64,000 nt of DNA. Origin: Thermoplasmatota archaeon. GTDB taxonomy: Archaea; Thermoplasmatota; Thermoplasmata; SG8-5; JACRNV01. The position numbers and the translations under genes are program-made. Location: contig JBFMEL010000001.1 of NCBI GenBank assembly GCA_040753455.1, positions 5,810 through 69,809 of the forward strand, in the 5' to 3' direction. Shown here piece by piece: positions 41,075 through 63,644 of this stretch. Position 1 is the first letter of the stretch. Each line of letters begins with the position of its first letter. Under the pieces are notes generated by a model. That model was not told the origin of the DNA and made no database searches. It saw nothing but the letters and a program-made list of their open reading frames with translations.

Positions 41075-41418
41075 GCGGCCCGCCCCCTCGGTGATCTTGG
41101 CATGGGGCAAGGCTCGTCCCCTATCCTCTGAGTATAGGAAGGCTGGGTCAGCGCCATCCTGAGAGAGGTGAGGACGAGGCTGCAGAGCCCGAGGCGCTTC
41201 CTGCTGAGCTCGGTGATGTCCTGCCTTGCTATGATCCATGACTTGTGGCGGTTCATGTAGCGTTCACCCATGGTGAAACACTTATGAGATATCATCTTTT
41301 CTCTTTCAGGAGATATGTTAACACATCCATCAAAACCCATTAGAAACGAGGATCGAGAGGGCAATCTTGCTTCTGTTGGTAGTCCAGATGCAGAGCTATC
41401 GGCAATAACGGTAATTAT

Positions 41419-45993: not shown

Positions 45994-46115
45994 CTGTCCA
46001 GCCCCCTCAGGGTGCACGGGTATCATAAGGACGCTATAATAAGTTTCGCTCCCCCGGCAAGCCAACGCCATAGAAAGGTTTAACTACCGATTGGTGTATT
46101 CAGTCAGACGAGAGC

Positions 46116-46382: not shown

Positions 46383-46763
46383 CCCTGCAGAGCATCCTCC
46401 GTGGTAACGTTCCCTTGGGAGGAGAGCTGAGCTCCCAGTTCCGCGCATGGGGACTGATATACCGTACGAACAACCAGGTAGGGCTCCGAGGTGCTGCTCG
46501 GTGCGAAACTCTAAGGTCTGGATCGATCAAATACAAGGGGTAGATTGTTTGGACATGAGATGCCTTTACATGGCATTCAACATAGAAAAATGGACTGTGC
46601 AGGTCTGAAGTGCAATCAAAATTACGAAAAGCCCGGGTGTGAATAACAATGCTGCGAGTGCTCAGGCGAAAAACTTTTTATGGAAATGGTGGATATCCGC
46701 ATCCCACGCCCCAGCGATGGATGGGTGCATGACGCTGCACCTATGGCTGGAGGGAGGGCAGGG

Positions 46764-47210
46764 ATGGCAGAAGCGATCAGAGAGGCTGTCAAGGACGAGT
46801 GCCGTGATCTCCTGCAGGGAGCGGTCACGAAGCCAGAGCGCAGTCTCGTCGAGGAGTTGCGGGAGATGTGCGCCGAGAACCCATACGCCTGCTATCAATG
46901 TGGCACCTGCTCTGCTGGCTGCCCGTACATCGAGGAGATGGACCTCACACCTGATGAGGTCATAAGGCATGTGGTCATGGACAAGAAGGAGGTGCTGGGT
47001 TCAAAGACGATATGGCTCTGCAGCTCCTGCTACACCTGTGCCGAGCGCTGTCCCAGGGACCTGAACATCACCAAGATCATGGAGGCACTGCGCCAGATCG
47101 TGCTGCGCAAGAACGTGGATGCAACGAGCATCCCCTGCATCGCAGAGGAGAAGAGGAGGGGGATACCGCAGATCGCGTTCGTATGCCTCTTCAGAAAGAA
47201 CATCGGATGA
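46764..47210 (+). CDS. hdrC: Heterodisulfide reductase subunit C-like (2x[4Fe-4S])
   Basis: CYQCGTCSAGCP and CSSCYTCAERCP. Start placed at the Met with a GGAGGGA RBS. A TATA-like element lies at ~46670. Confidence 0.75.
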   Translation: MAEAIREAVKDECRDLLQGAVTKPERSLVEELREMCAENPYACYQCGTCSAGCPYIEEMDLTPDEVIRHVVMDKKEVLGSKTIWLCSSCYTCAERCPRDLNITKIMEALRQIVLRKNVDATSIPCIAEEKRRGIPQIAFVCLFRKNIG

Positions 47211-47211
47211 G

Positions 47212-48090
47212 ACCATGGAGCTCTTGTATTTTCCAGGATGCACATTGAAGACCTATGCCAAGGGGCTCGAGACCTCTGCGTATGCTGTGATGAACGCACT
47301 GGGACACAGCATGGTGGAGATGAAGGAGTGGAACTGCTGCGGTGCTGTAGCCTCTCTCACAACGGATGACCTCATGCATCACATTGCCCCTTTACGTAAT
47401 CTGATCCATGTGGAGGACGAGGGGAAGGACAGGGTCATCGTCCTCTGCGACATGTGCTGCAACACCCTGAAGCAGACGCACTTACGGGTAAGGGAGCATC
47501 CCGAGGACCTGGAGAAGTTGAGCCTCTTCATGGACACCGAGCACAGGTACAATATGACTGTGAAGGTGCAGCACTTTCTGGAATTCCTGAGGGATGAAGT
47601 GACCTTCAAGGCCCTCAAGAAGATGGCGAAGCGCCCGTTGAAGGGGATGAGGCTGATGCCCTACTACGGCTGCATGCTCCTTCGGCCCAGGGAGGTCGCT
47701 ATAGACGATGCAGAGGAGCCCAGGATCATGGCAGAGCTGCTCGCAGCACTCGGCGCACAAGCAGTGGACAATCCTTACAAAATCGAATGCTGCGGCTCAT
47801 ATCACACGATAGAGCAGAAGGAGCTCACAGCCAAAAGGGCGCAGAAGATCTCGAGCTTCGCGATACAGCGCGGGGCGGATGCGATAGTGCTCTCATGCCC
47901 GCTGTGCAAGTTCAACATCGACCAGAGGGGCAAGGATGCTGAGCTCCTGTTCCCTGGTTATCGCCAGATCCCGGTCTATTATTACACTCAGCTCATCGCC
48001 GTTGCCCTCAACCTGGACATCGAGGTCTGCCAGTTCGGCGCGAACGCGGTGGACGCGGTGCCGCTGCTGAGGGAGAAGGGGGTGGCATAG
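47212..48090 (+). CDS. hdrB: Heterodisulfide reductase subunit B-like (two CCG domains)
   Basis: Two cysteine-rich CCG motifs (EWNCCGA, IECCGSYH), C-x31-39-CCG type. Confidence 0.8.
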   Translation, partial: TMELLYFPGCTLKTYAKGLETSAYAVMNALGHSMVEMKEWNCCGAVASLTTDDLMHHIAPLRNLIHVEDEGKDRVIVLCDMCCNTLKQTHLRVREHPEDLEKLSLFMDTEHRYNMTVKVQHFLEFLRDEVTFKALKKMAKRPLKGMRLMPYYGCMLLRPREVAIDDAEEPRIMAELLAALGAQAVDNPYKIECCGSYHTIEQKELTAKRAQKISSFAIQRGADAIVLSCPLCKFNIDQRGKDAELLFPGYRQIPVYYYTQLIAVALNLDIEVCQFGANAVDAVPLLREKGVA

Positions 48091-48112
48091 ATCATGACAG
48101 GGAGGGGGCTCA

Positions 48113-48853
48113 TTGGCTGAGGCGGCTGTGGCTCATGCAAGGAACCGAGAGATGGAAGGCGCGGAGAAGAGGACATACGACATCTACATCATGGGAAAGA
48201 GGTACCAGGTGCCTGTGGGTCTGACGATCATGAGCGCGATAGAGTATGCGGGCTACCAGTTCATCCGTGGCTGCGGGTGCAGGGCAGGGTTCTGCGGCGC
48301 GTGTTCCACAGTGTATCGGAAGGAAGATGAGCAGAAGCTCCACTTCGTGCTGGCGTGCCAGACGCTGGTCGAGGACGGGATGTATCTCGTGCAGATTCCG
48401 TTCGTGCCCGCCACAAAAGCGCTTTACGACATCGCTGCCCTGAAACCCGAGGAGAACACCGTGCTCTCCATCTACCCGGAGATCGCCAGGTGCGTGGCAT
48501 GCAACACATGCACCAAGTCATGCCCGCAGGAGATCAACGTGATGATGTACATCCAGAACGCCCTGAGGGGGGATATCGCAAGAGCAGCAGAGATCTCGTT
48601 CGACTGCATACAGTGCGGGCTGTGCGCCATGCGGTGCCCTGCGGATATCAAGCACTATCATGTGGGGCAGTTAGTGAGGAGGCTGCGCGGAAAATACTTG
48701 GACAAAAGATCCGAGCAACTGAGGGCGCGTCTCGAAGAGGTGAGAAGCGGGAGATACAAGGCAGAGATCGATGGGATGCTCTCTTTGCCCATCCAGGAGC
48801 TGAAGCTGATGTACAAGAACAGGAAGCTCGAGGCAGGTGCAGAGGAGGACTGA
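48113..48853 (+). CDS. sdhB: Succinate dehydrogenase / fumarate reductase iron-sulfur subunit
   Basis: [2Fe-2S] GCGCRAGFCGACS, then CVACNTCTKSCP and CIQCGLCAMRCP. Confidence 0.75.
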   Translation: MAEAAVAHARNREMEGAEKRTYDIYIMGKRYQVPVGLTIMSAIEYAGYQFIRGCGCRAGFCGACSTVYRKEDEQKLHFVLACQTLVEDGMYLVQIPFVPATKALYDIAALKPEENTVLSIYPEIARCVACNTCTKSCPQEINVMMYIQNALRGDIARAAEISFDCIQCGLCAMRCPADIKHYHVGQLVRRLRGKYLDKRSEQLRARLEEVRSGRYKAEIDGMLSLPIQELKLMYKNRKLEAGAEED

Positions 48854-50507
48854 TCGCTTGAAGCTCATCGAGGGCTATCCAGAGTATATGTGGAACTCGA
48901 TTCAGAAGGTGGAGGAGACGAGGGAGAAGCGCGCGGGTGTGATCCCCAGAGCCATGAGCCCGGAGGAGCGCGAGGAGGTGCTGAGGAAGTTCCACCCTGA
49001 TTTCATGGAGGGCACACGCCGCGAGGTCAGGATCGGGGCTAACAAGAACGAACACATATACAACGAGATCGTGGACCTGATAGAGGCAAAGCCGAAGATC
49101 GAGCCGAAGGATATAGACCTCGGCAGGGTGGATTACGATGTGGACGTGCTGGTCATAGGGGGTGGAGGCGCTGGTACGGTCGCAGCGATCTTCGCTCATG
49201 AATCTGGGATCCCGGTGGATCGCATCCTGCTGTGCACGAAGCTCAGGCATGGGGATTCCAATTCGATGATGGCGCAGGGCGGGATACAGGCAGCGGACAG
49301 GCCTGGGGACAGCCCGGCGATCCACTTCTTGGACGCGTACGGCGGCGGGCATTTCACCAACAAGCCCGAACTGGTCAGCGCGCTGGTGCAGGACGCGCTG
49401 GAGGTAGTCAAGTGGCATGAGGAGCTGGGCGTGATGTACGACCGCACCGAGGAGGGGAACTTCGTGGAGCTCTCGGGCGGAGGCACATCGCGCAACCGCA
49501 TGCACTCTGCCAAGGACTACACCGGGATGGAGCTGATGAGGACGATCCGCGATCACGCGAGGAACCTGAGGATCCCTGTGCTGGAGTTCGCTCCTGTGGT
49601 CGAGCTGCTGATGGATGACCATGGTGCGGTCTCAGGGGGGGTTGCGGTAAACCTCGAGACCCAGGAATATTACGTGATCAGAGCCAAAGCCACGATCCTA
49701 GCCACCGGAGGAAGTGGACGACTGCACCTGGCTAACTACGCGACCACGAACCACTATGGTGCCACGGGGGACGGGCTAATCATGGCTTACCATGCGGGTG
49801 CGAAGCTGCGCGACCTGGACACGGCACAGATTCATCCCACGGGCGCTGCCTATCCCGAGGCGATAGTAGGGTTCCTGTGCACCGAGAAGATCAGGGGGCT
49901 GGGCGGGCAGCCCGTGAACAAGGACGGCGAGCTCTTCGTCTTCCCGCTGGAACCGAGGGACGTGGAATCCGCAGCGTTCATCAGGGAGTGCAGGGAGCGC
50001 GGCAAGGGGCTCGTGACCCCCACGGGAATGCCCGGGATATGGCTCGACACCCCGATGATCGATCTGCTGCACGGCAAGGGAACGATCGAGCGCTCGCTGG
50101 CTGCGATGGTGCGGCAGTTCAAGCGCGTGGGGATCGACATGGTGAAATATCCGATCTTCGTGTATCCAACGCTGCACTATCAGAATGGCGGGGTGGAGAT
50201 CAACGAGCGCTGTGAGACCGGTGTGCTGGGGCTCTTCGCGGCGGGAGAGGTCAGCGGAGGGGTGCATGGCAAGAACCGCCTGATGGGCAACTCGCTCCTG
50301 GATTACAACGTCTTCGGGCGCAGGGCAGGGAGATATGCTGCGGAGTATGCGAAGGATCGCACTGTGGGCAAACTCTCCCTTCATCATCTCGACCACTACA
50401 TGCACATGCTGGAAGGAGCCCATATTAGATTCGACAGGAGCGCGCCGATCATCCTGCCCGAGTACCGTGGTAAGGAGGCGCTCGCACGCGCCCTCGATGT
50501 GCTGTGA
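48837..50507 (+). CDS. sdhA: Succinate dehydrogenase / fumarate reductase flavoprotein subunit with a ~100-aa N-terminal extension
   Basis: FAD motif DVLVIGGGGAGTVAA, covalent-FAD region H..SNSMMAQGG, and the active-site HPTG. Confidence 0.85.
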   Translation: MQRRTDRLKLIEGYPEYMWNSIQKVEETREKRAGVIPRAMSPEEREEVLRKFHPDFMEGTRREVRIGANKNEHIYNEIVDLIEAKPKIEPKDIDLGRVDYDVDVLVIGGGGAGTVAAIFAHESGIPVDRILLCTKLRHGDSNSMMAQGGIQAADRPGDSPAIHFLDAYGGGHFTNKPELVSALVQDALEVVKWHEELGVMYDRTEEGNFVELSGGGTSRNRMHSAKDYTGMELMRTIRDHARNLRIPVLEFAPVVELLMDDHGAVSGGVAVNLETQEYYVIRAKATILATGGSGRLHLANYATTNHYGATGDGLIMAYHAGAKLRDLDTAQIHPTGAAYPEAIVGFLCTEKIRGLGGQPVNKDGELFVFPLEPRDVESAAFIRECRERGKGLVTPTGMPGIWLDTPMIDLLHGKGTIERSLAAMVRQFKRVGIDMVKYPIFVYPTLHYQNGGVEINERCETGVLGLFAAGEVSGGVHGKNRLMGNSLLDYNVFGRRAGRYAAEYAKDRTVGKLSLHHLDHYMHMLEGAHIRFDRSAPIILPEYRGKEALARALDVL

Positions 50508-50518
50508 GGTGCAGAGCC

Positions 50519-50779
50519 ATGATCACCGTATTAGAGGACTGGTGCAAGGGCTGCGCGATCTGCATCAAGCGCTGCCCGCGCGACGCGCTGGAGCTCTCCA
50601 CCAAGCTGAATAAGAGGGGCGTGTATCCCCCCAAGCTCAAGGAGGTGAACGACTGCAATTACTGCCGCCTCTGCGAGCTGCTCTGTCCTGATTTCGCGCT
50701 CAGTGTGACCCCTGACGAGGGGTACGTGCCCAAGGATTTCAAGAAGCTCATAATCGGAGGGATTGCAGGTGAGGTATAA
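50519..50779 (+). CDS. korD: 2-oxoacid:ferredoxin oxidoreductase delta subunit (2x[4Fe-4S] ferredoxin)
   Basis: CKGCAICIKRCP and CNYCRLCELLCP. Confidence 0.75.
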   Translation: MITVLEDWCKGCAICIKRCPRDALELSTKLNKRGVYPPKLKEVNDCNYCRLCELLCPDFALSVTPDEGYVPKDFKKLIIGGIAGEV

Positions 50780-50804
50780 GCGAGATCCTGAGAGGATCAG
50801 GAGG

Positions 50805-52825: not shown

Positions 52826-52874
52826 CAGGGAGCAAAGGTCTGTGTCTCGGGTGCTGCACGCAGGGGGCGATGAA

Positions 52875-53414
52875 ATGAAGAAAGAGATAAGGATCGCGGG
52901 CTTCGGGGGTCAGGGCGTGGTGCTGGCAGGTGTCATCCTCGGCAGGGCTGCATGCGTGTATTCTGAGTACAACGCTGTGCAGAGCCAGTCCTATGGCCCA
53001 GAGGCAAGGGGTGGTGCGGCGAGATCCGAGGTCATCATATCCGATGAAAAGATCGGCTATCCCAGACCCACCAGTGTGGATCTGTTCGCTGCCATGGCGC
53101 AGGAGGCGTTCGACACCTATGTGAAGGACGTGAGAGAGGATACGATCATCATCATAGACCCAGACCTCGTGCCCCGTCATGATATCGGGCGCCCGCTGTA
53201 CAAAGTGAGGGCGCAGAAGATCGCTGAGGAGCTGGGGAATAAGGTGGTGACAAATATCGCAATGGTCGGCGGGATCACAGGGATCTTCACACTCTTGAGC
53301 CCGGAGGCTGTGAAGCAGGCGGTGATAGACTCCGTGCCCGCGCGCTTCAAGGAACTGAACGTCAAGGCGTTCGAGAAAGGCTTAGAGGCAGGTAGAGATG
53401 CCAGACCCGAGTGA
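52875..53414 (+). CDS. korG: 2-oxoacid:ferredoxin oxidoreductase gamma subunit
   Basis: MKKEIRIAGFGGQGVVLAG is the canonical gamma-subunit start. Confidence 0.8.
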   Translation: MKKEIRIAGFGGQGVVLAGVILGRAACVYSEYNAVQSQSYGPEARGGAARSEVIISDEKIGYPRPTSVDLFAAMAQEAFDTYVKDVREDTIIIIDPDLVPRHDIGRPLYKVRAQKIAEELGNKVVTNIAMVGGITGIFTLLSPEAVKQAVIDSVPARFKELNVKAFEKGLEAGRDARPE

Positions 53415-56400
53415 GATCATTCACAGGTACTACGAGGACGTCCCCCTTGCAGACGATTACCTCGTCCTTGTACCAGAGATCATGATGCTGGACGACGAGG
53501 TCTCAGAGGGATATGCCCCAGCCCTGAGGGCGGAGATGGCGATCCGCAGGATCAAGAGAACGATGGAGGGGGACGTGCTGGTCGTGGGTGCGGGCATCGC
53601 GGGCATGCAGGCTGCGCTCGACATCGCGGACAAGGGCTACAGGGTGGTGCTGGTGGAGAAATCCTCCACCATCGGGGGAAATATGGTCAAGCTGGACAAG
53701 ACCTTCCCCACCAACGACTGCTCGATCTGCACCTCCGCGCCGAAGATGGTGGAAGTATCAAGGCACCCGAACATCAAGCTGCTGACCTATGCCGAGCTCG
53801 CAAGGTTAGAGGGCAGTGCCGGAGACTTCACGGCTCATGTATACAGAAAGAGCAGGTACGTGGATCCCGAGAAGTGCACAGGCTGCGACGACTGCGCTGT
53901 GGTGTGCCCCGTGGAGATCGTCAATCCCTTCGATGAGCGCTTGTCCAAGCGCAAGGCGATATACATCGAGTTCCCGCAGGCTGTGCCCATCGTGTACACC
54001 ATCGATTACGAGCACTGCGTGGGCTGCGGCGCATGCGAGCGCGCGTGCGAGCCTGGCGCGATCTCCTTTCTACAGAAATCTGAAGATATAGAGGTAAGGG
54101 TGGGCAGCGTCATCGTCGCCACGGGCTACGAGCTCTTCGAGCCCCTGGAGATGCGCAGAGAGTATGGATATGGAAAATATTCAAATGTAATTACAGCGAT
54201 GCAGTTCGAGCGCCTCTTATCCTCCTTCGGACCCACTGAGGGAAAGGTCAGACGCCCGTCGGACGGTGCCAAGCCCAGGTCTATCGCATGGATCCAGTGC
54301 GTTGGGTCGAGGAGCAAGCAGCTCGGGTTCCCGTACTGCTCCAGGGTCTGCTGCATGTACGCGACCAAGGAAGCCTCGATCACTAAGGAGGCAGAGCCAG
54401 ATACAGATATCACGATATTCTACATGGACCTCCGCGCCTATGGGAAGGACTTCCAGCAGTATTACGAGGATGCCAAGAAACTGGGCGTGAACTATGTGCG
54501 TGCTCGCCCCTCCTCCATATACCAGAACGAGGACAAGAGCATCACGATCAGGTACATGGACACCCACACCAGGGAGGTGAAGGAAAAAACTGTGGACCTG
54601 CTGGTGCTCTCCACAGCGATCATGCCGTCGAGGGAGAACAAGCGCCTTGCCAGCGTTCTGGGGATAGAGGTGGACGAGAGCGGTTTCTTCAGGGCAAGAT
54701 CCACAGTCACTGACCCTATCGCCTCCACGCGCGATGGCGTCTACCTTGCAGGCTGCATCCAGGGTCCGAAGGACATCCCGGACAGCGTGGCGATGGGCAG
54801 CGGTGCAGCCGCGAGAGCCATGGTGCCGATCATTGGAAGGGCGAAGACCGCGCCGCCACCCCCGCCGCCGGAGAGGGACGTGAGCTCAGAGCCTCCTAAG
54901 ATAGGGGTATTTGTCTGCCACTGCGGCAAGAACATCGCCAACTACGTGGATGTGGAGGCTGTGACCAGGTACGCGCAGTCCCTGCCTAACGTGGTGTACG
55001 CCACGCACGAGATGTTCGTCTGCTCCGAGGATATCCAGAAGAAGATCAAGGAGCAGATCAAGGAGGAGGGGCTGAACAGGGTCATTGTGGCGGCATGCTC
55101 CCCGCGCACCCATGGTCCCCTGTTCCAGGATACGATGGTCGCAGCAGGGCTGAACAAGTACCTCTTCGAGATGGCGAACATCCGCAACCAGTGCTCGTGG
55201 GTGCACTCTCACGAGCCCGAGAGGGCGACACAGAAATCCAAGGGGTTGGTGGCGATGGCAGTGACCAGGGCATCGCTGCTCGAGCCACTAACGGAGAGCG
55301 ATTTCACGGTGATTCCAAGGACGCTGGTGATCGGTGGAGGGCTGTCCGGGATGAGGGCAGCGATCGCGCTGTCAGAGATGGGGATCGAATCGTTCATCGT
55401 CGAGCGGGAAGAGGAGCTGGGTGGCATCCTCAAACACCTTCATTCCCTATTCCCCGCAGAGACCAAAGCCTCGGATATCATAGAGCCGCTCATCACCAGG
55501 GTGAAGAACGATCCACGCATCACCGTGTACACTGGGGCGGAGCTGCTCAGCGTCGAGGGTTTCATCGGCAACTTCAAGGCTAAGCTCAACACGCACGAGG
55601 GCGAGAAGGAGATAGAGTTCGGCACTGCGATCATCGCCACAGGGTTCAGGGAGATTGACCTCAAGGGGAGATACGCTCATGGCACGCATCCCGGGATCGT
55701 CACACAGACAGAGCTCGAGAGGATGCTGAAGGAGGGCACGGTGCCCCCACTAAAGCACGTGGTGATCATCAACTGCGCAGGTGCGATGGACGACGAGCGC
55801 CCGTACTGCTGCCGCATAGGCTGCGGCGTCTCGATAAAGAACGCGAAACTGCTCAAGGATATCAATCCCAACATGGAAATAACCATCCTCTACCGCGACA
55901 TCAGAGTGTTCGGGAAGGACGAGGAGGAATACTACGGGCGCGTGATAGAAGACAAGAGGGTGAAGATCATACGGTACCTGAAGGAAGAACAGCCAGCAGT
56001 ATCCGTGAGCGAGAAGGGTGATTTAGGCGTCAGGGTGAGGGATGCTGTGTACGGTGATGAGTTCGAGCTGCCCGCGGACCTGGTGGTGCTCACTGCTCAG
56101 ACAGAGGGAGGTGCTGATGTCGAGCGGCTTAAGAAGATGCTGAAGGTGCCCACTGACGCAGGCGGCTTCTTCACCGAGGCACATGCAAAGATACGCCCCC
56201 TGGATTTCGCTTCAGATGGTGTGTATGTGTGCGGCAGTGCCCACTATCCCAAGAACCTCGCGGACACGATCGCGCAGGCTGAGGGTGCTGCATCGCGCGC
56301 TGCGATACCGATACTGCGGGGGATGGTCAGGGGAGAGGGCATAGTATCCTCCATAGACCCGGACAGATGCTCGGGCTGCGGTCTCTGCGTCGGCGTATGC

Positions 56401-56562
56401 CCTTACGGCGCCATCTCCCTGGAGAGGGGTGTGGGGGTGGTGAACGTCGCGCTCTGCAAGGGCTGCGGCGCCTGTGCAGCCATCTGCCCATCGGGCAGCG
56501 CCAGGCAGATGGGATACAGGGACAACCAGATCTTAGCGATGTTAGGGGCTGCGATGACGTAG
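53398..56562 (+). CDS. hdrA: Giant (1054 aa) tandem-duplicated heterodisulfide reductase subunit A-like flavoprotein
   Basis: Two successive FAD-dependent HdrA modules (VLVVGAGIAGMQAALD and TLVIGGGLSGMRAA). Each has inserted ferredoxin CxxCxxCxxxCP motifs. An internal HdrA N-terminal Cys cluster (VFVCHCGKNIA) is present. Confidence 0.8.
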   Translation: MPDPSEIIHRYYEDVPLADDYLVLVPEIMMLDDEVSEGYAPALRAEMAIRRIKRTMEGDVLVVGAGIAGMQAALDIADKGYRVVLVEKSSTIGGNMVKLDKTFPTNDCSICTSAPKMVEVSRHPNIKLLTYAELARLEGSAGDFTAHVYRKSRYVDPEKCTGCDDCAVVCPVEIVNPFDERLSKRKAIYIEFPQAVPIVYTIDYEHCVGCGACERACEPGAISFLQKSEDIEVRVGSVIVATGYELFEPLEMRREYGYGKYSNVITAMQFERLLSSFGPTEGKVRRPSDGAKPRSIAWIQCVGSRSKQLGFPYCSRVCCMYATKEASITKEAEPDTDITIFYMDLRAYGKDFQQYYEDAKKLGVNYVRARPSSIYQNEDKSITIRYMDTHTREVKEKTVDLLVLSTAIMPSRENKRLASVLGIEVDESGFFRARSTVTDPIASTRDGVYLAGCIQGPKDIPDSVAMGSGAAARAMVPIIGRAKTAPPPPPPERDVSSEPPKIGVFVCHCGKNIANYVDVEAVTRYAQSLPNVVYATHEMFVCSEDIQKKIKEQIKEEGLNRVIVAACSPRTHGPLFQDTMVAAGLNKYLFEMANIRNQCSWVHSHEPERATQKSKGLVAMAVTRASLLEPLTESDFTVIPRTLVIGGGLSGMRAAIALSEMGIESFIVEREEELGGILKHLHSLFPAETKASDIIEPLITRVKNDPRITVYTGAELLSVEGFIGNFKAKLNTHEGEKEIEFGTAIIATGFREIDLKGRYAHGTHPGIVTQTELERMLKEGTVPPLKHVVIINCAGAMDDERPYCCRIGCGVSIKNAKLLKDINPNMEITILYRDIRVFGKDEEEYYGRVIEDKRVKIIRYLKEEQPAVSVSEKGDLGVRVRDAVYGDEFELPADLVVLTAQTEGGADVERLKKMLKVPTDAGGFFTEAHAKIRPLDFASDGVYVCGSAHYPKNLADTIAQAEGAASRAAIPILRGMVRGEGIVSSIDPDRCSGCGLCVGVCPYGAISLERGVGVVNVALCKGCGACAAICPSGSARQMGYRDNQILAMLGAAMT

Positions 56563-56582
56563 GGAGAATGACGATAATGTGA

Positions 56583-57029
56583 TTGATGGAGGTTGCATGG
56601 ATGGACGAGAAAAACGGTTTCGAGCCGAAGATCATCGGGTTTCTCTGCAACTGGTGCAGCTATGCCGGTGCAGACCTGGCAGGGGTGAGCAGGATCCAGT
56701 ACCCGCCCAACGTGCGGGTAATAAGGGTCATGTGCTCCAGCAGGGTGGACCCTATCTTTGTGCTCAGGGCATTGACGGATGGAGCAGACGGCGTATTGAT
56801 AGCAGGCTGTCATCCTGGTGATTGCCATTACATCGAGGGGAACTACCGCACGAGGCGGAGGGTTGCTGCACTGAAAAGGATCCTCGAGAAGTATGGGCTG
56901 AGCGACAGGCTCTTCCTTGAATGGGTGAGCGCAAGCGAGGGAAAGAAGTTCGCGGAGGTGGTGACAAAGGTCACCAACACCATCAAGGAGCTTGGACCAA
57001 ACCCGCACAGAAAGATATGGGAGATCTAG
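56583..57029 (+). CDS. mvhD: MvhD/FlpD-like [2Fe-2S] subunit
   Basis: [17 protein letters not shown]...[10 protein letters not shown] is the MvhD signature. Confidence 0.8.
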   Translation: MMEVAWMDEKNGFEPKIIGFLCNWCSYAGADLAGVSRIQYPPNVRVIRVMCSSRVDPIFVLRALTDGADGVLIAGCHPGDCHYIEGNYRTRRRVAALKRILEKYGLSDRLFLEWVSASEGKKFAEVVTKVTNTIKELGPNPHRKIWEI

Positions 57030-57039
57030 GGGTGAAAGG

Positions 57040-58062
57040 ATGCCTACGTATAAAATAGAGGAGAGGGAAATCCAGAGGATCCTCGAACATCTGCTGGTCA
57101 AGGGTATCGTCGAAGGGGTCATGCTCCAGGTCAGGGGGGAGCATGGTGTCTTTACAGCCCTCGTCGCAGATCCTGCACGTATCGCAAGTGCTGTGCCGCT
57201 GGCTCCGCTGTTCTCCGGCAACACCGCCGTCTACCTTCAGAACAATGGAAGGAGGAAGATCGCAGTTGTGGTGAAGCCGTGCGAAGCCAGGGCGATCAAC
57301 GAGCTGAAGAAATTAAATCAGATAAACCTGGACGATCTCATCGTGATATGCAGCGACTGCCTGGGGACGGTGGATCCCAAGGGGGTCACGGAGCCGCTGA
57401 CCGATGCAAAAAAGAAGGAGCTCATGAGGAGCGCGTGCAGGGTCTGCGAGCACTTCACGCCCCCAGAGGTGGATCTCAGCATCCTGACCATTGGGACTGG
57501 GGATGGGTGCATCGTTGCCACTGAGAGGGCAGAGCTCCTCGAAGGCTTGAACCTGAGGTGTGAGGAGATCCCAGAGGCACGGGAGCACGAGATCCAAAAG
57601 ATCCGAAAGGAGCGGCTCAAGCACAAGGAAGAGATGACCAAGGAGATGATAAAAAAGTTATCTGCTCCAGGTTCGCTTGCAGAGGCATTGAGCCACTGCA
57701 TACGCTGCGACAACTGCAGGGAGGTGTGCCCACTCTGCTACTGCAAGGAATGCTACTTCGAAACCCCTTTGGGGGATCTAAGAACAGACGGGATGCTGCA
57801 TCAGGCAGCGATAAAAGGGATACTGAGAGTTCCCCCGGACATCCTTTTCTATCATCTCACCAGGCAGATCCATGTCGCCGCGGGATGCGTGGGATGCGGA
57901 GCATGCGAAGAAGCATGCCCGAGAGAGATCCCCCTGCTGTCGATATGGAAGGCGGTGGCACCTGATGTCCAGGCGCTGTTCGACTATGTGGCAGGGATGG
58001 AGAAGGACGTGCCGCTGCCCATGGTGCAGTTCAAAGAGGAAGAGCTCGAAGAGGTGAAGTGA
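57040..58062 (+). CDS. FrhB/FdhB-family (coenzyme F420-reducing hydrogenase beta subunit-like) iron-sulfur flavoprotein
   Basis: FrhB-type N-terminal domain plus C-terminal CIRCDNCREVCP and CVGCGACEEACP. Start at MPTYKI. Confidence 0.7.
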   Translation: MPTYKIEEREIQRILEHLLVKGIVEGVMLQVRGEHGVFTALVADPARIASAVPLAPLFSGNTAVYLQNNGRRKIAVVVKPCEARAINELKKLNQINLDDLIVICSDCLGTVDPKGVTEPLTDAKKKELMRSACRVCEHFTPPEVDLSILTIGTGDGCIVATERAELLEGLNLRCEEIPEAREHEIQKIRKERLKHKEEMTKEMIKKLSAPGSLAEALSHCIRCDNCREVCPLCYCKECYFETPLGDLRTDGMLHQAAIKGILRVPPDILFYHLTRQIHVAAGCVGCGACEEACPREIPLLSIWKAVAPDVQALFDYVAGMEKDVPLPMVQFKEEELEEVK

Positions 58063-60047
58063 GGTTGGAGGGAGCTACGAAGATAGGCGTATACGTCTGC
58101 GAGTGCGGGATCAATATCTCAGCCGCTGTGGACGTGGCAAAGGTCGCAGAGCATGCAAAGGGATTGCCTGATGTTGTGGTGAGCAGGTACTACAAATACA
58201 TGTGCTCCGACCCTGGACAGTCCCTCATAAAGAATGATATAAAGGAGATGGGGCTCACCCACGTGGTGGTAGCCTCCTGCTCCCCGAGGATGCACGAGCC
58301 CACCTTCAGAGCGGTGGTCGAGGAGGGGGGGGTGAACCCCTACTGCTTCGAGATGGCGAACATCAGGGAGCACTGCTCCTGGGCGCACATGCGTGAAAAG
58401 GATAAGGCGACAGAGAAAGCAAAGGACCTGGTGAGGATGGCCGTAGCCAAGGCAAGGCTGCTTCGACCGCTGCAGAGAAAGCAGGTGCCCGTCACGCCCG
58501 CCGCGCTGGTGATCGGGGGTGGGATCGCAGGCATACAAGCCGCGCTGGAGATCGCAGAGAGCGGGTTCAAGACCTACCTGGTAGAGCGGACACCGAGCAT
58601 CGGGGGTCGCATGGCGCAATTAGACAAGACCTTCCCCACACTGGACTGCTCCGCCTGCATCCTCACACCTAAGATGGTGGATGTCGCCAGGCACCCCAAC
58701 ATCGAGCTGCTCACATACTCGGAGGTCACGGGTGTCGAGGGATACATCGGCAACTTCAAGGCGACAGTAAAGAAGAAAGCCAGATATGTGGACATAGACA
58801 AATGCGTGGGCTGCGGTCGGTGCGCCGAGGCATGCAGGCTAAAGGGACGTGTAGCCGACGAGTTCAATGAGAAACTCGGCAAACGCAGTGCGATATACGT
58901 GCCGTTTCCTCAGGCAGTGCCGCTGAAGTACACGATCGACCCAGAGCGTTGCATATTTTTAAAGACTGGTAAATGCGGCGACTCCCCGCTGTGCGTGGAA
59001 GCCTGTGAGGCAAATGCCATCGACCATCAGCAGAAAGATGATGTCGTTGACCTTGAAGTGGGCACCATCGTTGTGGCGACAGGCTTCGATCTATACGATC
59101 CATCCCAGAAACCAGAATACGGGTATGGAAAGATCAAAAATGTGATCACTGGCTTGGAGTTCGAGAGGCTCGTATCCGCCTCTGGTCCCACAGGGGGGCA
59201 CATCGAGGTAAACGGTAAGGAGCCCAGGAGGGTGGTCTTCATCCAGTGCGTGGGATCGAGGGACAAGGAGGGCAACGAGTACTGCTCGCGCGTGTGCTGC
59301 ATGTACACAGCCAAGCACGCGCATCTCGTGAGGGAGAAGATCCCCGGCGCCAATGTCACGATCTATTATACCGATGTAAGAGCCTTTGGTAAAGGTTTCG
59401 AGGAGTTCTACAACAGGGTGAAGGGCGAGGGCGTTGCATACCGCAGAAGGGAGCTGGACGATGCCATCGAGGTCGTGGAGGATGATGGCAGGACCATCGT
59501 CAAAGCCCAGGGCCACGAAGATATAGAGGCAGACTTGGTGGTGCTGGCGACCGCGATCGTTCAGCGAACAGATATCGAAGAGCTTGCCAGGGTGTTGAAG
59601 GTCTCACGCGGTGCAGACGGCTTCTTCCTGGAGATTCATCCAAAACTAAGACCCATGGACACTGCCACCGGAGGGATATTCATAGCAGGCTGCTGCCAGT
59701 CCCCAAAGGATATCCCTGACACGGTCGCGCAGGCGAGCGGTGCGGCAGCCAAGGCATCGATACCCCTCTCGCAGGGGAAGATCGATCTAGACCCCCAGAG
59801 GTCTGAGGTCATCGATGAGAACTGCGACGGCTGCGCATACTGCATAGAGCCGTGTCCGTTCAAGGCACTGACATTAATCGAGTATATGCGGGATGGCGCG
59901 ATCAAGAAGACGGTGGAAGCAAATGAGGCTCTGTGCCAGGGCTGCGGTGTCTGCCAAGCCACGTGTCCCAAACAGGGGATCATCGTGAGAGGGTTCACGA
60001 CCAAGCAGATCTCTGCAATGGTCGATGCCCTTCTCGGGGTGGTGTAG
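58059..60047 (+). CDS. hdrA: Heterodisulfide reductase subunit A
   Basis: N-terminal Cys cluster [13 protein letters not shown] motif [13 protein letters not shown], and inserted ferredoxin domains. GTGA overlap start. Confidence 0.9.
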   Translation: MRLEGATKIGVYVCECGINISAAVDVAKVAEHAKGLPDVVVSRYYKYMCSDPGQSLIKNDIKEMGLTHVVVASCSPRMHEPTFRAVVEEGGVNPYCFEMANIREHCSWAHMREKDKATEKAKDLVRMAVAKARLLRPLQRKQVPVTPAALVIGGGIAGIQAALEIAESGFKTYLVERTPSIGGRMAQLDKTFPTLDCSACILTPKMVDVARHPNIELLTYSEVTGVEGYIGNFKATVKKKARYVDIDKCVGCGRCAEACRLKGRVADEFNEKLGKRSAIYVPFPQAVPLKYTIDPERCIFLKTGKCGDSPLCVEACEANAIDHQQKDDVVDLEVGTIVVATGFDLYDPSQKPEYGYGKIKNVITGLEFERLVSASGPTGGHIEVNGKEPRRVVFIQCVGSRDKEGNEYCSRVCCMYTAKHAHLVREKIPGANVTIYYTDVRAFGKGFEEFYNRVKGEGVAYRRRELDDAIEVVEDDGRTIVKAQGHEDIEADLVVLATAIVQRTDIEELARVLKVSRGADGFFLEIHPKLRPMDTATGGIFIAGCCQSPKDIPDTVAQASGAAAKASIPLSQGKIDLDPQRSEVIDENCDGCAYCIEPCPFKALTLIEYMRDGAIKKTVEANEALCQGCGVCQATCPKQGIIVRGFTTKQISAMVDALLGVV

Positions 60048-60461
60048 ATGACGAACGATCATGAGCCCCTGCTCGTGGCATTCTGCTGCAACTGGTGCTC
60101 GTACGCAGGCGCTGATTTAGCCGGCACATCCAGAACCCAGTATCCGCCCAATGTCAGGATAATAAGGGTGATGTGCTCAGGGATGGTGCACCCCAACCTT
60201 GTGATCGACACGCTCACCAAGGGCGCTGATGGCGTCCTGATGTGCGGCTGTCATCCCGGTGATTGCCACTACATCGAGGGGAATCTAAGGGCTGAGAAGC
60301 GCGCGGAGGCGATACGTCTCATGCTGGAGGACATGGGGTTTGAACCTGAACGATACAGGTTGGAATGGATCTCTGCCTCGGAAGGGCAGCGGTTCGCCGA
60401 GGTCGTGAAAGAGATGGTCGAACAATTGAAGGCGCTAGGTCCGAACCCATACAGGGCGTAG
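60048..60461 (+). CDS. mvhD: MvhD/FlpD-like subunit (second copy)
   Basis: [17 protein letters not shown]...[10 protein letters not shown]. Confidence 0.85.
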
Positions 60462-60529
60462 GTGATCATACGAGCAATGAGGCGGATGTATCAGGCGGCG
60501 AGGTCGCGACGACCAACGATAAACCAAGG

Positions 60530-61792
60530 GTGGGCGTATACGTCTGCGAGTGCGGGATCAATATCTCAGCCACTGTGGATGTGCCTGAGGTCGCAGAGGA
60601 TGCAAAGGGATTGCCTGATGTGGCAGTGAGCAGGTACTACAAATACATGTGCTCCGACCCTGGGCAGTCCCTCATAAAGAATGATATAAAGGAGCTCGGG
60701 CTCACCCACGTGGTGGTAGCCTCCTGCTCACCGAGGATGCACGAGCCCACCTTCAGAGCAGCGGTCGAGGAAGCGGGAGTGAACCCCTACTGCTTCGAGA
60801 TGGCGAACATCAGGGAGCACTGCTCCTGGGCGCACATGCATGAAAAGGATAAGGCGACAGAGAAAGCAAAGGACCTGGTGAGGATGGCCGTAGCCAAGGC
60901 AAGGCTTCTTCGGCCCATAGAAAAGATGCGTGTGCCCGTCACCCCCGCCGCACTGGTGATTGGTGGGGGGATCGCAGGCATACAAGCCGCGCTGGACATA
61001 GCAGACAGAGGGTTCAAGACCTACCTGATAGAGCGGACACCGAGCATCGGGGGTCGCATGGCGCAATTAGACAAGACCTTCCCCACACTGGACTGCTCCG
61101 CCTGCATCCTCACGCCCAAGATGGTGGATGTCGCCAGGCACCCCAACATCGAACTGCTCACATACTCGGAGGTCGCCGGGATCGGTGGATATGTAGGCAA
61201 TTACAAAGTGAAGGTCAAGAAGAAGGCAAGATCGGTGGACGGATCGAAATGTACCGGGTGCGGGCTGTGCACAGAGCACTGCCCAGTGATCCTTCAGCCG
61301 CAGATACAGGAGATGCCAAAAGAGGCGCCTTCTGTGAGAGACAAGGAATTCATCGAGGGGCTGATCGCCAAGCATTCGCATCTTAAGGCTCCTGTGGTGC
61401 AGATCCTGCTGGACGTGAACGAGAAATACAGATACCTTCCAAAGGAGATCCTGAGATATCTCTCCTTTAGGCTGGAGATGCCGCTGAGCACCATATACAG
61501 AGTCGCTACCTTCTATAAAGCGCTCAGTCTCGAAATGAGGGGGAAATACCATATAAAAGCCTGCCTGGGCACCGCCTGCCACGTGAGAGGCGCCAGAAAG
61601 GTCGTTGACGCGATCAGGGACTACATCGCCAAGACAGAAGAAGGGCTCTTCTCCCTCGAGCCCGTGAACTGCCTCGGCGCATGCGCCCTTGGTCCTATCA
61701 TGGTGGTGAACGAGGAGTACCATGGACACATGACCATCGACAAGGTAGCTGAAATACTCACATCCCTGGAGGGAGGCAATGAAAAAGATTAA
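60530..61792 (+). CDS. Chimeric protein: N-terminal ~240 aa of HdrA fused to a NuoE-like thioredoxin-fold [2Fe-2S] domain
   Basis: The first ~700 nt are ~93% identical to hdrA at 58083-58790. The C-terminus has NuoE/HoxF-type motifs [10 protein letters not shown]...[12 protein letters not shown] start at 60530. Confidence 0.7.
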
Positions 61793-63644
61793 GAACCCCG
61801 AAGAACTGAGAAACCTGCGAAAGGCGATCCAGGATGGAAAGGACCCAGATAAAACAGTCGTTACTGTTTGCAAGGGCACGGGGTGTGTAGCATCCGGGTC
61901 CGAGCCCCTCATCAACGCCTTCAGGGAAGAGATAGAAAAGCGGAAGATCCAGGACAGGGTCGAGGTGCGGGTCACCGGGTGTCATGGTTTCTGTGAAAAA
62001 GGGCCTATCGTCGTCATATATCCCAGCAGGATATTCTATCCCATGGTCATCCCGGAGAAGGTGCCTGCTATTATCTCCGAGACGGTGCTTGAGAACAGAA
62101 TCATCGAGGATATGCTATATGTCGATCCCACCACGGGTGAGAAGATCATCTATGAGCATGATGTCCCGTTCTACAAGAAGCAGACCAGAACGATCCTGGC
62201 CAACAACGGACTGATAGATCCAACGAGCATAGAAGATTACATCGGTACGGGCGGTTATTTCGCGCTCGCAAAAGCACTTACCAGTATGACGCCAGAAGAG
62301 ATCATCAGCGAGGTCAAAGCCTCTGGGTTGAGGGGGCGCGGGGGCGCAGGTTTCCCCACAGGGGTCAAATGGGAGTTCTGCAGAGCTGCGAAGGGCGAGC
62401 AGAAGTACATCATCTGCAACGGTGACGAGGGCGATCCCGGTGCCTACATGGACAGGAGCGTGCTGGAGGGCAATCCGCACAGCGTGATAGAGGGGATGAT
62501 CATAGGAGCCTATGCCATAGGTGCGAGCAAGGGCGTAGCCTATGTGAGAGCCGAGTATCCGCTGGCAGTCCATAACCTCGACATTGCGATCAACCAGGCA
62601 AAGGAGCTCGGCTTGCTGGGCGACAACATCCTTGGAAGCGGGTTTGATTTCGAGCTCTGGATTTACAGAGGTGGTGGAGCCTTTGTGTGCGGCGAAGAAT
62701 CTGCTCTTATCGCATCGATCGAGGGCAGGTCGGGGGAACCGAGACAGCGCCCGCCGTTCCCTGCGCAGTCCGGGCTCTGGGGCTGCCCCACGAATATCAA
62801 CAATGTGGAGACATGGGCGAACGTTCCCCACATCATAAGCAGGGGGGCTGAGTGGTATGCCAGCATCGGGACCGAGAGCAGCAAGGGCACGAAGATCTTC
62901 TCGCTCGTGGGGAAGGTGAACAATACCGGTCTGGTGGAGGTGCCCTTTGGCACAACGCTGAGGACGATCATATTCGAGATCGGTGGGGGCATTCCGGGGG
63001 CTCGAAAATTCAAGGCGGTACAGTCCGGAGGACCATCGGGGGGATGCATCCCTGCTGAACATATAGATACCCAGGTCGATTACGCGGAGCTTACCAAGCT
63101 GGGCTCGATCATGGGCTCCGGCGGTTTGATCGTCATGGACGAGGACACATGCATGGTCGATGTTGCCAGATACTTCATATCCTTCACCCTGGACGAATCC
63201 TGCGGGAAGTGCACGTCGTGCAGGGAAGGCAACGCCCAGATGTTAGAGATGCTGAAGGATATCTGCGATGGCAAAGGCAAGGAGAGCTACCTGCCCATGC
63301 TCGAGGAACTGTGTGGGTACATCAAGGAGACCTCGATGTGCGCCCTCGGGGGCACAGCCCCGAACCCTGTGCTCACCACACTGAGATATTTCAGGGACGA
63401 ATATATGGCTCACATACAAAGGAAAGAATGCCCTGCCAAGGTGTGCAAAGCCCTGATCTTTTATCAGATTGACCCAGAGAAATGCACTGGATGCGGCATG
63501 TGCGCCAAGAAATGCCCGATGGGCGCCATATCAGGGGAGAGGAGGCAGCCACATGTGATAGACAGGGAGATATGCACGAGATGTGGCACGTGCCATGCCA
63601 CGTGCAAGTTCGATGCCATCCTTGTCAGGACAGGAGGGGGTTGA
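61779..63644 (+). CDS. nuoF: NuoF-like NAD(H)-binding FMN iron-sulfur subunit with an N-terminal thioredoxin-like [2Fe-2S] domain and C-terminal 2x[4Fe-4S]
   Basis: [15 protein letters not shown] (FMN/NADH site), [10 protein letters not shown] ([4Fe-4S]), and C-terminal [12 protein letters not shown] / [11 protein letters not shown]. Confidence 0.85.

Follow-up and report, generated by a model that had tools for sequence, protein, structure and literature searches.

What does an HdrA of 1054 residues do when it is encoded between the genes of a putative 2-oxoglutarate synthase and an MvhD adaptor, close to those of a fumarate reductase-like flavoprotein? The question is raised by a 64,000-nucleotide (nt) stretch of contig JBFMEL010000001.1 from a Thermoplasmatota archaeon—hereafter the window—in which this gene, the fused (double) hdrA, occupies positions 53398..56562 of the + strand. 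An initial annotation had read its product as two full HdrA modules in one polypeptide and had interpreted these as either a covalently fused dimer or a circular permutation of canonical HdrA. We find the domains of HdrA divided between two modules, and the protein is very likely a covalent heterodimer of two long-diverged, complementary HdrA halves. The best overall explanation of the locus—which we hold to be probable, if only just—is that this single-chain heterodimer is wired as described below and belongs to a fumarate/2-oxoglutarate operon.

The gene is a single uninterrupted open reading frame (ORF) of 1054 codons plus stop with an ATG start, in whose span nothing but short ORFs occurs in other frames or on the opposite strand; its first codons overlap the stop of the preceding korG by 17 nt. 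The product is 100% identical to NCBI entry MEW5936249.1, which stems from an archaeal metagenome-assembled genome (MAG) and is annotated as 'CoB--CoM heterodisulfide reductase iron-sulfur subunit A family protein'. Its top 120 matches among database clusters, drawn from NCBI, JGI, ENA, and Logan assemblies, share 62–78% identity with it at 98–100% query coverage and measure 1051–1114 amino acids (aa), with more than 100 at 1055–1072 aa; a few reach about 1200 aa and end in a fused MvhD domain. When a library with 50%-identity clustering was searched, 2858 proteins reached E ≤ 1e-30; among the best 150 of these, 106 are about 1000 aa long and collinear across both halves at 35–51% identity. 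The junction between the modules is in-frame and conserved in the homologue consensus. A sequencing or assembly error that merged two adjacent hdrA genes might imitate such a protein—tandem hdrA genes that could be merged do occur in other organisms (PMC9012536)—as might a circular permutation of a single HdrA. No support for an artefact was found, and more than 200 full-length collinear homologues from independent assemblies, together with the conserved in-frame junction, exclude a frameshift or assembly error; permutation in turn conflicts with the completeness of both flavin adenine dinucleotide (FAD) domains. We regard these explanations as practically negligible. The frameshift into two genes that the initial annotation had named as its refutation is thereby excluded, and its claim of one 1054-aa polypeptide is borne out by the intact ORF, the identical NCBI protein, and the homologue lengths.

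Read along the + strand, the polypeptide begins with an extension (residues 1–54; 53398..53559) that has no family match and low model confidence and that is conserved only within the Thermoplasmata subfamily, where Y21, P26, and E27 are invariant. Module 1 opens with the first part of a thioredoxin reductase (TrxR)-like FAD domain (residues 55–149; 53560..53844) bearing GxGxxG at 64–69 and the motif KTFPTNDCSIC, whose Cys108 and Cys111 correspond to Cys194 and Cys197 of the canonical HdrA 5ODC. An inserted ferredoxin domain with 2 x 4 Cys (C160/163/166/170 and C207/210/213/217; residues 150–231; 53845..54090) separates it from the second part of the FAD domain (residues 232–476; 54091..54825), which holds the cluster Cys C301/C314/C318/C319 as well as E271 and K324—the equivalents of E356 and K409 in canonical HdrA. 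A Pro-rich linker, PIIGRAKTAPPPPPPERDVSSEPP (residues 477–498; 54826..54891), leads to a domain of the HdrA N-terminal type (residues 499–636; 54892..55305) with C507, C509, C542, and C567, and also C599. The motif VFVCHCGKNIA lies in this domain, at residues 504–514 (nt 54907–54939), so that the annotation was right to place it internally. The second FAD domain, that of module 2 (residues 637–975; 55306..56322), carries GxGxxG at 646–651, E774, C793/C804/C805/C809, and K814; FPAETKAS stands where the Cys194/Cys197 pair would be, and the inserted ferredoxin is missing. The chain closes with a C-terminal ferredoxin domain (residues 976–1054; 56323..56559; C991/994/997/1001 and C1020/1023/1026/1030). 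Two Rossmann/FAD motifs (G64xG66xxG69 and G646xG648xxG651), two Pyr_redox_2/FAD stretches, and four CxxCxxCxxxC ferredoxin motifs are accompanied by exactly a single copy each of the N-terminal domain, Cys197, the inserted ferredoxin, and the C-terminal ferredoxin.

The best Protein Data Bank (PDB) matches are the solved HdrA chains 5ODC, 8RVU, 8RVV, 9SFI, and 7BKB (E 1e-173 to 1e-215), each of which aligns to the full query in three pieces: query 55–476 with HdrA ~145–570 (the TrxR-like FAD domain with inserted ferredoxin), 492–651 with 4–163 (the N-terminal cluster domain), and 909–1053 with 509–653 (the last part of the FAD domain, with the C-terminal ferredoxin). Residues 499–1054 searched alone reveal a second, more diverged HdrA that matches 5ODC at 4–234 and 318–643 and skips 235–317, the inserted ferredoxin; module 1, aligned to 5ODC and 8RVU, is without the N-terminal domain and without the C-terminal ferredoxin. 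The NCBIfam HdrA models NF041778, NF041891, and NF040770 each match in three separate stretches, with whole-protein scores under their cut-offs (1045 vs 1100 bits for HdrA2, 795 vs 1400, and 733 vs 1300). Every domain type, cluster Cys, and FAD-site residue of canonical HdrA (5ODC, 8RVU, 7BKB; MvhAGD–HdrABC) can be recognised in the fused protein, and both modules hold the four TrxR-cluster Cys and the equivalents of E356 and K409—residues treated as hallmarks of bifurcating HdrA (PMC12054007). However, canonical HdrA consists of two identical ~650-aa chains, each with every domain and together forming two symmetric bifurcation sites, whereas in the fused protein no single unit holds all domains and each chain carries one set of accessory domains, hence at most one complete wiring. 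The description as two full modules therefore does not hold: module 1 covers HdrA ~145–570, and module 2 is without the Cys pair and the insert. Nor does circular permutation, as there are two complete TrxR-like domains and the internal Cys cluster is the N-terminal domain of module 2. The covalently fused dimer stands, with the correction that it is a heterodimer of complementary halves.

How far these halves have diverged can be read from their FAD domains, which are 25% identical to each other (E 1e-43) and both nearer to the canonical HdrA of 662 aa whose gene lies 1.5 kb downstream (47% for module 1, 37% for module 2). Hence, the protein descends from a fusion of long-separated paralogues and not from a recent tandem duplication. 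The complementary pattern is the same in the 106 divergent collinear relatives, which we used as the conservation set. The Cys pair of module 1, its eight insert Cys, its four cluster Cys, and its Glu and Lys are each kept in 91–105 of them; a Cys at the module 2 positions of Cys194/197 occurs in none. The N-domain Cys of module 2 are kept in 100–103 of the 106 and the eight Cys of the C-terminal ferredoxin in 105. Three Cys of the module 2 FAD-domain cluster are invariant, and the fourth position, 805 (nt 55810–55812), is Ser in 93 relatives and Cys only in the subfamily of the window protein. E774 and K814 are present in 78 and 69 relatives, compared with 104 and 102 for their module 1 counterparts, and the position of K814 is taken by Gln in four. 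In canonical HdrA, Cys197 completes the cluster of the N-terminal domain across the dimer interface (PMC9012536). A Cys197 equivalent that is kept in the module without an N-terminal domain and lost in the module with one is what would be expected if Cys111 completes the internal N-domain cluster. Versions of about 1300–1530 aa also exist (P0123, P0126, P0136, P0143, and others; L077 10001–14268), which align to query 200–1053 only from their residue ~450–670; in these, for example in Thermosulfurimonas dismutans, a large extra segment seems to sit inside or ahead of the region of module 1 that holds the inserted ferredoxin.

The predicted ligands add up to 8 + 8 ferredoxin Cys, 4 + 4 TrxR Cys, and 4–5 N-domain Cys plus Cys111, a count that, taken from the sequence, fits two FAD and seven [4Fe-4S] clusters. 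An AlphaFold2 model built from 40 homologues reaches a predicted template-modelling (TM) score of 0.78 and a mean predicted local distance difference test score of 74, with poor regions at residues 1–52, 94–112, and 153–226. Foldseek matches this model to single HdrA chains with TM scores of 0.75–0.77 relative to the target; no fused HdrA was found by sequence or fold among the PDB chains searched, in a copy of the PDB without the BamE entries.

As a kind of protein, the fused double HdrA is already known: biochemically from Moorella, by catalogue from archaea, and by cryo-EM as BamE. In the MetFV–HdrABC–MvhD complex of Moorella thermoacetica, HdrA binds two FAD (PMC5861303, Buckel and Thauer, reviewing Mock et al. 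2014), and fused HdrAs have been suggested to be their own heterodimeric partner, the Moorella protein alike (PMC9012536). Lyu et al. (PMC12054007) define 'type II' HdrA (176 sequences) as a class A6-like unit fused to an A12-like one, and a survey of archaeal fusions (PMC11237513) lists Asgard and TACK lineages with a doubled HdrA, to which MvhD is often attached. The window protein shares the marks of this group, with two TrxR-like FAD domains in one polypeptide, a complementary distribution of N-terminal domain and Cys197 between the units, an mvhD gene 20 nt downstream, and HdrC- and HdrB-like partners in the same operon. Compared by description, the Moorella system has the same two FAD per chain and the gene order hdrCBA-mvhD, and collinear homologues of the window protein at 42–47% identity sit in hdrCBA-mvhD-metVF clusters, such as that of Desulforadius tongensis (L079); its acceptor is MetFV and its donor NADH, whereas the acceptor in the window is Tfr-like. 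Type II HdrA, or HdrA3 and HdrA4, of anaerobic methanotrophic (ANME) archaea, Methanosarcinales, and relatives likewise consists of two fused units with a complementary N-terminal domain and Cys197, and its clusters also encode MvhD and FdhB, as the window does. Unlike the window, these clusters encode a non-catalytic molybdopterin protein and belong to CoM-S-S-CoB metabolism. As to unit order, the text of PMC9012536 puts the unit with the N-terminal domain first, whereas in the window protein and all collinear relatives the Cys197-bearing unit comes first; the statement in PMC12054007 that A12 resembles the C-terminal part of type II agrees with the latter. The ANME and Methanosarcinales genomes in which the initial annotation proposed to look for similar proteins are not the home of this copy, which belongs to a Thermoplasmatota lineage; methane-metabolising archaea do have fused HdrAs of their own (PMC9012536, PMC12054007).

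Among the closest known systems is BamE of the class II benzoyl-CoA reductase of Geobacter metallireducens, called a 'fused HdrA dimer' in a cryo-EM preprint (bioRxiv 10.64898/2026.04.10.717634). According to this preprint, BamE has a Cys59–Cys62 pair, seven [4Fe-4S] clusters (E1–E7), and one FAD in each TrxR domain, of which that in the N-terminal TrxR1 (Lys280) bifurcates and that in TrxR2 (Gln768) does not; electrons enter via the C-terminal ferredoxin domain and leave at high potential from E4 to the HdrBC-like BamD—which relays them to a flavoprotein and not to a disulfide—and at low potential through E3 and the inserted ferredoxin domain. Like BamE, the fused HdrA of the window has two TrxR-like domains predicted to bind FAD, and the MvhD-like adaptor BamF and BamD find their counterparts in MvhD and the HdrCB-like proteins. 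By residue numbers only, Cys59/62, Lys280, and position 768 of BamE map to C108/C111, K324, and K814 at a constant offset of 44–49. This offset matches in length the N-terminal extension, some 50 residues that the window protein has in addition to BamE, and to that extent argues for collinearity. The second FAD position differs, being Gln in BamE and Lys814, with Glu774, in the window protein, which thus retains the hallmark Lys that the BamE subtype is without. The partners differ as well: BamE works with the BamBC tungsten enzyme, BamGHI, and ETF, whereas the window encodes Kor, a Tfr-like fumarate reductase, and an FdhB-like protein.

The fused hdrA sits in a tightly packed run of + strand genes from 46680 to 63644. 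It begins with an HdrC-like 2x[4Fe-4S] protein (46680..47210), an HdrB-like CCG-domain protein (47119..48090; likely start 47215, MELLYFPGC), an FrdB-like protein with a [2Fe-2S] and a 4Fe-4S dicluster (48113..48853), and a TfrA/FrdA-like flavoprotein of 556 aa (48837..50507). The Kor genes follow with an 86-aa KorD-like 2x[4Fe-4S] ferredoxin subunit (50519..50779) and with KorA (50763–51953), KorB (51950–52825), and KorG (52797–53414; likely start 52875), which are predicted to form a 2-oxoacid:ferredoxin oxidoreductase of 2-oxoglutarate type. Downstream of the fused hdrA come the MvhD of the FlpD family, a [2Fe-2S] adaptor (56583..57029), and an FdhB-like iron-sulfur protein of 356 aa (56992..58062; the true start may be 57040). 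From a PorD_KorD match it had been considered that the inserted ferredoxin of HdrA substitutes for a missing KorD; this was rejected, as the KorD-like ORF is present and is conserved in 35 loci of the survey described below.

The flavoprotein has TfrA as its best match (325 bits, cut-off 718), followed by SdhA/FrdA and NadB. Fumarate-site motifs are recognisable, and HPTG, RGxGG, HYxxGG, and NRLxGNSL are all present; at the position of the covalent-FAD His of succinate dehydrogenases stands an Asn. A missing covalent-FAD His goes along with fumarate reduction rather than succinate oxidation, and the Asn here favours the reductase direction. On motifs alone an identity as NadB is formally possible; L-aspartate oxidase was rejected, since TfrA/FrdA rank first and an FrdB-like partner bearing a [2Fe-2S] is present. 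QmoA and QmoB of sulfate reducers are reportedly two different HdrA-like flavoproteins that pair and pass electrons to AprAB, a member of the fumarate reductase superfamily; they are said to be separate polypeptides, membrane-linked through QmoC. By analogy with Qmo/Apr, the flavoprotein was considered as an adenosine 5'-phosphosulfate reductase, which was rejected as well: it matches TfrA/FrdA first and not AprA, the partner of QmoA/QmoB, which is not among the top 25 NCBIfam matches listed.

TfrB is matched in its N-terminal part by the FrdB-like protein and in its C-terminal CCG half by the HdrB-like protein, and these two separate genes (48113 and 47119) reach 37 and 50 bits against a cut-off of 385; to judge by their sequences, they look like a split TfrB to which HdrC has been added. 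With TfrA under its cut-off and TfrB split, the pair departs from the TfrAB equivalogs. The HdrB-like protein itself matches HdrB best (TIGR03288, 140 bits) and also SdhE of type E enzymes (NF042965, 119 bits). One might therefore read the HdrBC-like pair as a genuine disulfide reductase, which would reduce a low-molecular-weight or protein heterodisulfide that the Tfr-like enzyme would regenerate by thiol-dependent fumarate reduction, as in Methanothermobacter. Such a cycle would suit an HdrB-like protein that matches HdrB best and also matches the CCG half of TfrB, a flavoprotein whose best match is TfrA, and the precedent of methanogens (TfrAB with Mvh/HdrABC, cited in PMC6315080). However, the methanogen scheme needs two thiol/disulfide sites, in HdrB and TfrB, and the conserved set holds one CCG protein; all scores fall under the equivalog cut-offs, the hosts are non-methanogenic lineages and Chloroflexaceae, and BamD shows that an HdrBC-like module can be a plain relay (bioRxiv 10.64898/2026.04.10.717634). 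We consider a disulfide cycle unlikely.

On the Kor side, KorA passes a generic 2-oxoacid model (541 vs 411 bits); KorB (267 vs 364) and KorG (214 vs 235) stay under their cut-offs, their best matches being models of 2-oxoglutarate type. The FdhB-like protein has homologues (E 1e-20 to 1e-26) in the FdhB chains of three solved Hdr supercomplexes, where these form the bridge to HdrA; it is shorter than these chains and is matched by no NCBIfam model. It is a candidate entry module for mid-potential electrons.

Whether the neighbours belong together was judged from a survey of the 80 best loci, with one genome per species and the window proteins as tblastn queries. All 80 encode the fused form, save a few cut by contig ends. 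Copies from Thermoplasmata/Thermoplasmatota are 55–68% identical to the fused HdrA and those from Chloroflexaceae (Candidatus Chloroploca, Viridilinea, Oscillochloris-like), unexpectedly, 53–61%; at 42–47% follow Bathyarchaeia, Caldatribacteriota, many Desulfobacterota, Thermosulfurimonas, Desulforadius, and one Methanomassiliicoccales MAG, and cluster look-ups add Asgard and Pseudomonadota MAGs. The set of HdrC-like, HdrB-like, FrdB-like, TfrA-like, and KorD/A/B/G accompanies the fused hdrA in 34–35 of the 80 loci. These are mostly closer relatives, of at least ~53% identity, L074 at 43% being an exception; closer relatives without the set lie mostly on short or truncated contigs, and L035 and L036 are without it despite several kb of downstream flank. 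Three gene orders occur: hdrCB-frdB-tfrA-kor-hdrA-mvhD, frdB-tfrA-kor-hdrA-hdrCB-…-mvhD, and hdrA-mvhD-(fdhB)-hdrCB-frdB-tfrA-kor. In the second, as seen in L009 (14516–18006) and shared by many Thermoplasmata, the 3 kb between hdrB and mvhD carry, instead of the FdhB-like gene, those for a [NiFe] hydrogenase (small and large subunit) and for a maturation protease.

MvhD is present in 68 of the 80 loci, and the remaining partners vary. Homologues of MvhG/MvhA occur in 22–24 loci, all archaeal, and the FdhB-like gene in 18, the window and Chloroflexaceae included; these two donor modules are almost mutually exclusive, both being found in L005 and L007. Relatives with MvhAG encode the full Mvh–Hdr parts list. 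Distant bacterial relatives carry metV-metF in place of the Tfr/Kor set (12 loci), and the order in Desulforadius (L079), hdrC-hdrB-hdrA-mvhD-metV-metF, is the Moorella arrangement. In a 'Methanomicrobia' MAG (L036) the fused gene adjoins mvhD, an hdrD-like gene, an HdrA–MvhD fusion, and hdrCB, which resembles the type II clusters of PMC12054007. The Chloroflexaceae copies (L015–L018, L025, L028, L030, L031, L034, L037, L056) bring the whole Tfr/Kor/HdrBC/FdhB-like set and are nearer to those of Thermoplasmata (L001–L043) than other archaeal copies are (Bathyarchaeia 47%); this suggests, by sequence similarity, that the complete cluster was transferred between archaea and bacteria. Several loci (L044, L047, L054, L057, L060, L061, L072, L076, and L046 of Bathyarchaeia) hold two to four fused hdrA-mvhD pairs within ~20 kb, L046 having three fused copies and one canonical.

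Metabolic genes often cluster without forming complexes, and the genes around the fused hdrA might be neighbours only. The FrdAB-like and HdrBC-like proteins would then be an independent type E-like succinate:quinone/fumarate reductase—in line with the SdhE match of the HdrB-like protein—Kor an ordinary enzyme of the tricarboxylic acid cycle, and HdrA–MvhD–FdhB-like would serve another acceptor. Against this, the gene set accompanies the fused hdrA in two domains of life and in three gene orders, no other HdrBC pair was detected in most loci holding the set, and distant relatives exchange the whole acceptor set for MetVF, as would be expected if the neighbours define the acceptor. A second, weaker HdrB/HdrC-like match (25–45% identity) is seen in L004, L006, L010, L011, L014, and L032. 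Such independence of the neighbours appears improbable to us.

By homology with canonical HdrA and BamE, a wiring can be proposed for the fused HdrA within a fumarate/2-oxoglutarate operon. What the analysis shows is the architecture with its ligand pattern and the conserved linkage with exchangeable donor modules; the path and direction of the electrons, the substrates, and any physical complex are inferred. Electrons would be supplied by the donor module, FdhB-like here and MvhAG hydrogenase in relatives. From the bifurcating flavin, the high-potential electron would pass through the module 1 cluster C301/314/318/319 to the HdrC-like, HdrB-like, and FrdB-like proteins and on to the FAD of the TfrA-like flavoprotein and fumarate. 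The low-potential electron would take the N-domain cluster, which Cys111 of module 1 would complete within the same chain, then cross the inserted ferredoxin domain and reach ferredoxin or KorD for use by 2-oxoglutarate synthase. The second FAD is probably structural or accessory, after the example of BamE. Fumarate reduction and succinyl-CoA carboxylation are near-consecutive and occur 1:1, and the system would couple these two steps of the reductive tricarboxylic acid branch; the drop to fumarate is larger than that to the heterodisulfide used by canonical Hdr. A coupling of fumarate reduction to 2-oxoglutarate synthesis seems possible to us, if short of probable. More tentative still is the full proposal that the fused HdrA is the core of an electron-bifurcating fumarate reductase independent of coenzyme M and coenzyme B, with H2 via MvhAG as donor in many Thermoplasmata and an FdhB-like module here and in Chloroflexaceae, which feeds a four-subunit 2-oxoglutarate synthase and whose whole cluster appears to have moved between archaea and bacteria.

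A similar coupling of kor, tfr, and flx-hdr has been proposed for tubeworm symbionts and Thioflavicoccus, by a complex that shuttles electrons directly to both enzymes (PMC6315080). TfrAB with Mvh/HdrABC and Kor of Methanothermobacter and the clusters of PMC6315080 combine the same three activities, namely fumarate reduction, Hdr-type bifurcation, and 2-oxoglutarate synthase. Interspersed genes are a common trait as well. The donor of the latter is FlxABCD, whereas the window and its relatives have an FdhB-like or MvhAG donor; in the window, moreover, TfrB is split into FrdB-like and HdrB-like proteins, HdrC is added, and HdrA is of the fused type. The hosts of the window-type cluster, Thermoplasmata and Chloroflexaceae, are also unlike those of the Methanothermobacter and tubeworm-symbiont systems.

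Several points weigh against this wiring and the assignments it builds on. Unlike BamE, module 2 keeps E774, K814, and four Cys by its FAD, and a purely structural second FAD is not established. The pseudo-dimer geometry and the ligation of the N-domain cluster by Cys111 are predicted from sequence, and the structure model is poor exactly at 94–112 and 153–226. TfrA, HdrB, HdrC, KorB, and KorG are all under the NCBIfam equivalog cut-offs, hence the substrates are not proven; the length of the FdhB-like protein and its missing NCBIfam match make the donor cofactor putative. Gene linkage does not prove a physical complex. Finally, Thermoprofundales are usually seen as peptide fermenters with an oxidative Kor (PMC6461988, PMC9585477), which would favour the reverse direction.

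This reverse direction, confurcation, deserves weighing of its own: Kor would oxidise 2-oxoglutarate to give low-potential electrons, the Frd-like enzyme would oxidise succinate to give high-potential ones, and both would merge at the HdrA flavin to yield H2 (in relatives with MvhAG) or a reduced mid-potential carrier, permitting quinone-free succinate oxidation in a fermenter. Both steps are consecutive and 1:1 in the oxidative sense too, the gene linkage is identical, Thermoprofundales are viewed as amino-acid and peptide degraders with oxidative Kor (PMC6461988, PMC9585477), and HdrA systems are reversible in principle (PMC12054007). Yet the Asn at the position of the covalent-FAD His and the reductase TfrA as best match speak for the opposite direction. 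With textbook potentials of about -500 mV and +30 mV, the mean is about -235 mV. At this potential, the formation of H2, NADH, or F420H2 would be uphill except at very low product levels. Confurcation thus appears doubtful to us, and bifurcation towards fumarate and 2-oxoglutarate synthase remains our preferred reading.

This copy is a further fused double HdrA from a Thermoplasmatota lineage, of a known kind of protein in a less familiar Tfr/Kor context. For specialists the fused protein by itself adds little; the value lies in the comparison across neighbourhoods, in which fused HdrA and MvhD behave as a portable bifurcation core. The acceptor module varies with the neighbourhood—MetFV, the BamBC tungsten enzyme, heterodisulfide, or, here and always together with Kor, a Tfr-like fumarate reductase—and so does the donor module, MvhAG or FdhB-like. 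The Tfr/Kor-linked context of fused hdrA is conserved and, as far as searched, undescribed in the literature; the Thermoprofundales papers (PMC6461988, PMC9585477) and an HdrA-evolution preprint make no mention of this cluster or of the fusions. If the coupling holds true, the large drop to fumarate would explain the source of very low-potential electrons for 2-oxoglutarate synthase in non-methanogenic anaerobes, and fumarate would join the few high-potential acceptors on record for HdrA-type bifurcation. As cultured Chloroflexaceae (Candidatus Chloroploca, Viridilinea, and Oscillochloris relatives) carry the same cluster, it is experimentally approachable.

Three different forms of HdrA are encoded within 9 kb of the window. 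The FdhB-like gene is followed on the + strand by the canonical HdrA of 662 aa with all domains and the Cys pair (58059–60047), a second MvhD (60048–60461), a truncated HdrA fused to NuoE (475 aa; 60365–61792), and a NuoF-like protein (61779–63644) with extra N-terminal [2Fe-2S] and C-terminal ferredoxin parts. In the 475-aa chimera, the HdrA part comprises the N-terminal domain and the beginning of the FAD domain, extending through the Cys194/197 pair and as far as the first CxxCxxCxxxCP motif of the insert; joined to it is a thioredoxin-like [2Fe-2S] domain of NuoE type. The chimera has homologues in L005 (73%) and L074 (50%). The genes from canonical hdrA to NuoF-like (58059..63644) are a possible NADH entry module. 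In L003 and L038, the closest relatives that share this gene order, no NuoEF-like neighbours were detected; NADH via NuoEF-like proteins was therefore rejected as a conserved donor, and these genes were treated as a window-specific addition.

Elsewhere in the window, the - strand region 39081–41239 encodes an EtfA that carries a 2x[4Fe-4S] ferredoxin domain at its N terminus, beside an overlapping 322-aa ORF (40271–41239) that we guess to be EtfB, and, near these, an acyl-CoA dehydrogenase (44794–46071), which together could form a second flavin-based bifurcation system of Bcd/Etf type. Between the Etf genes and the acyl-CoA dehydrogenase lies a + strand gene (41419–44691) whose product of 1090 aa combines a STAND NTPase domain with a long array of TPRs. 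Further upstream, an ORF on the - strand (28555–30195) shows matches to two domains of GvpD, a regulator of gas vesicles, namely its P-loop and its basic-region domain.

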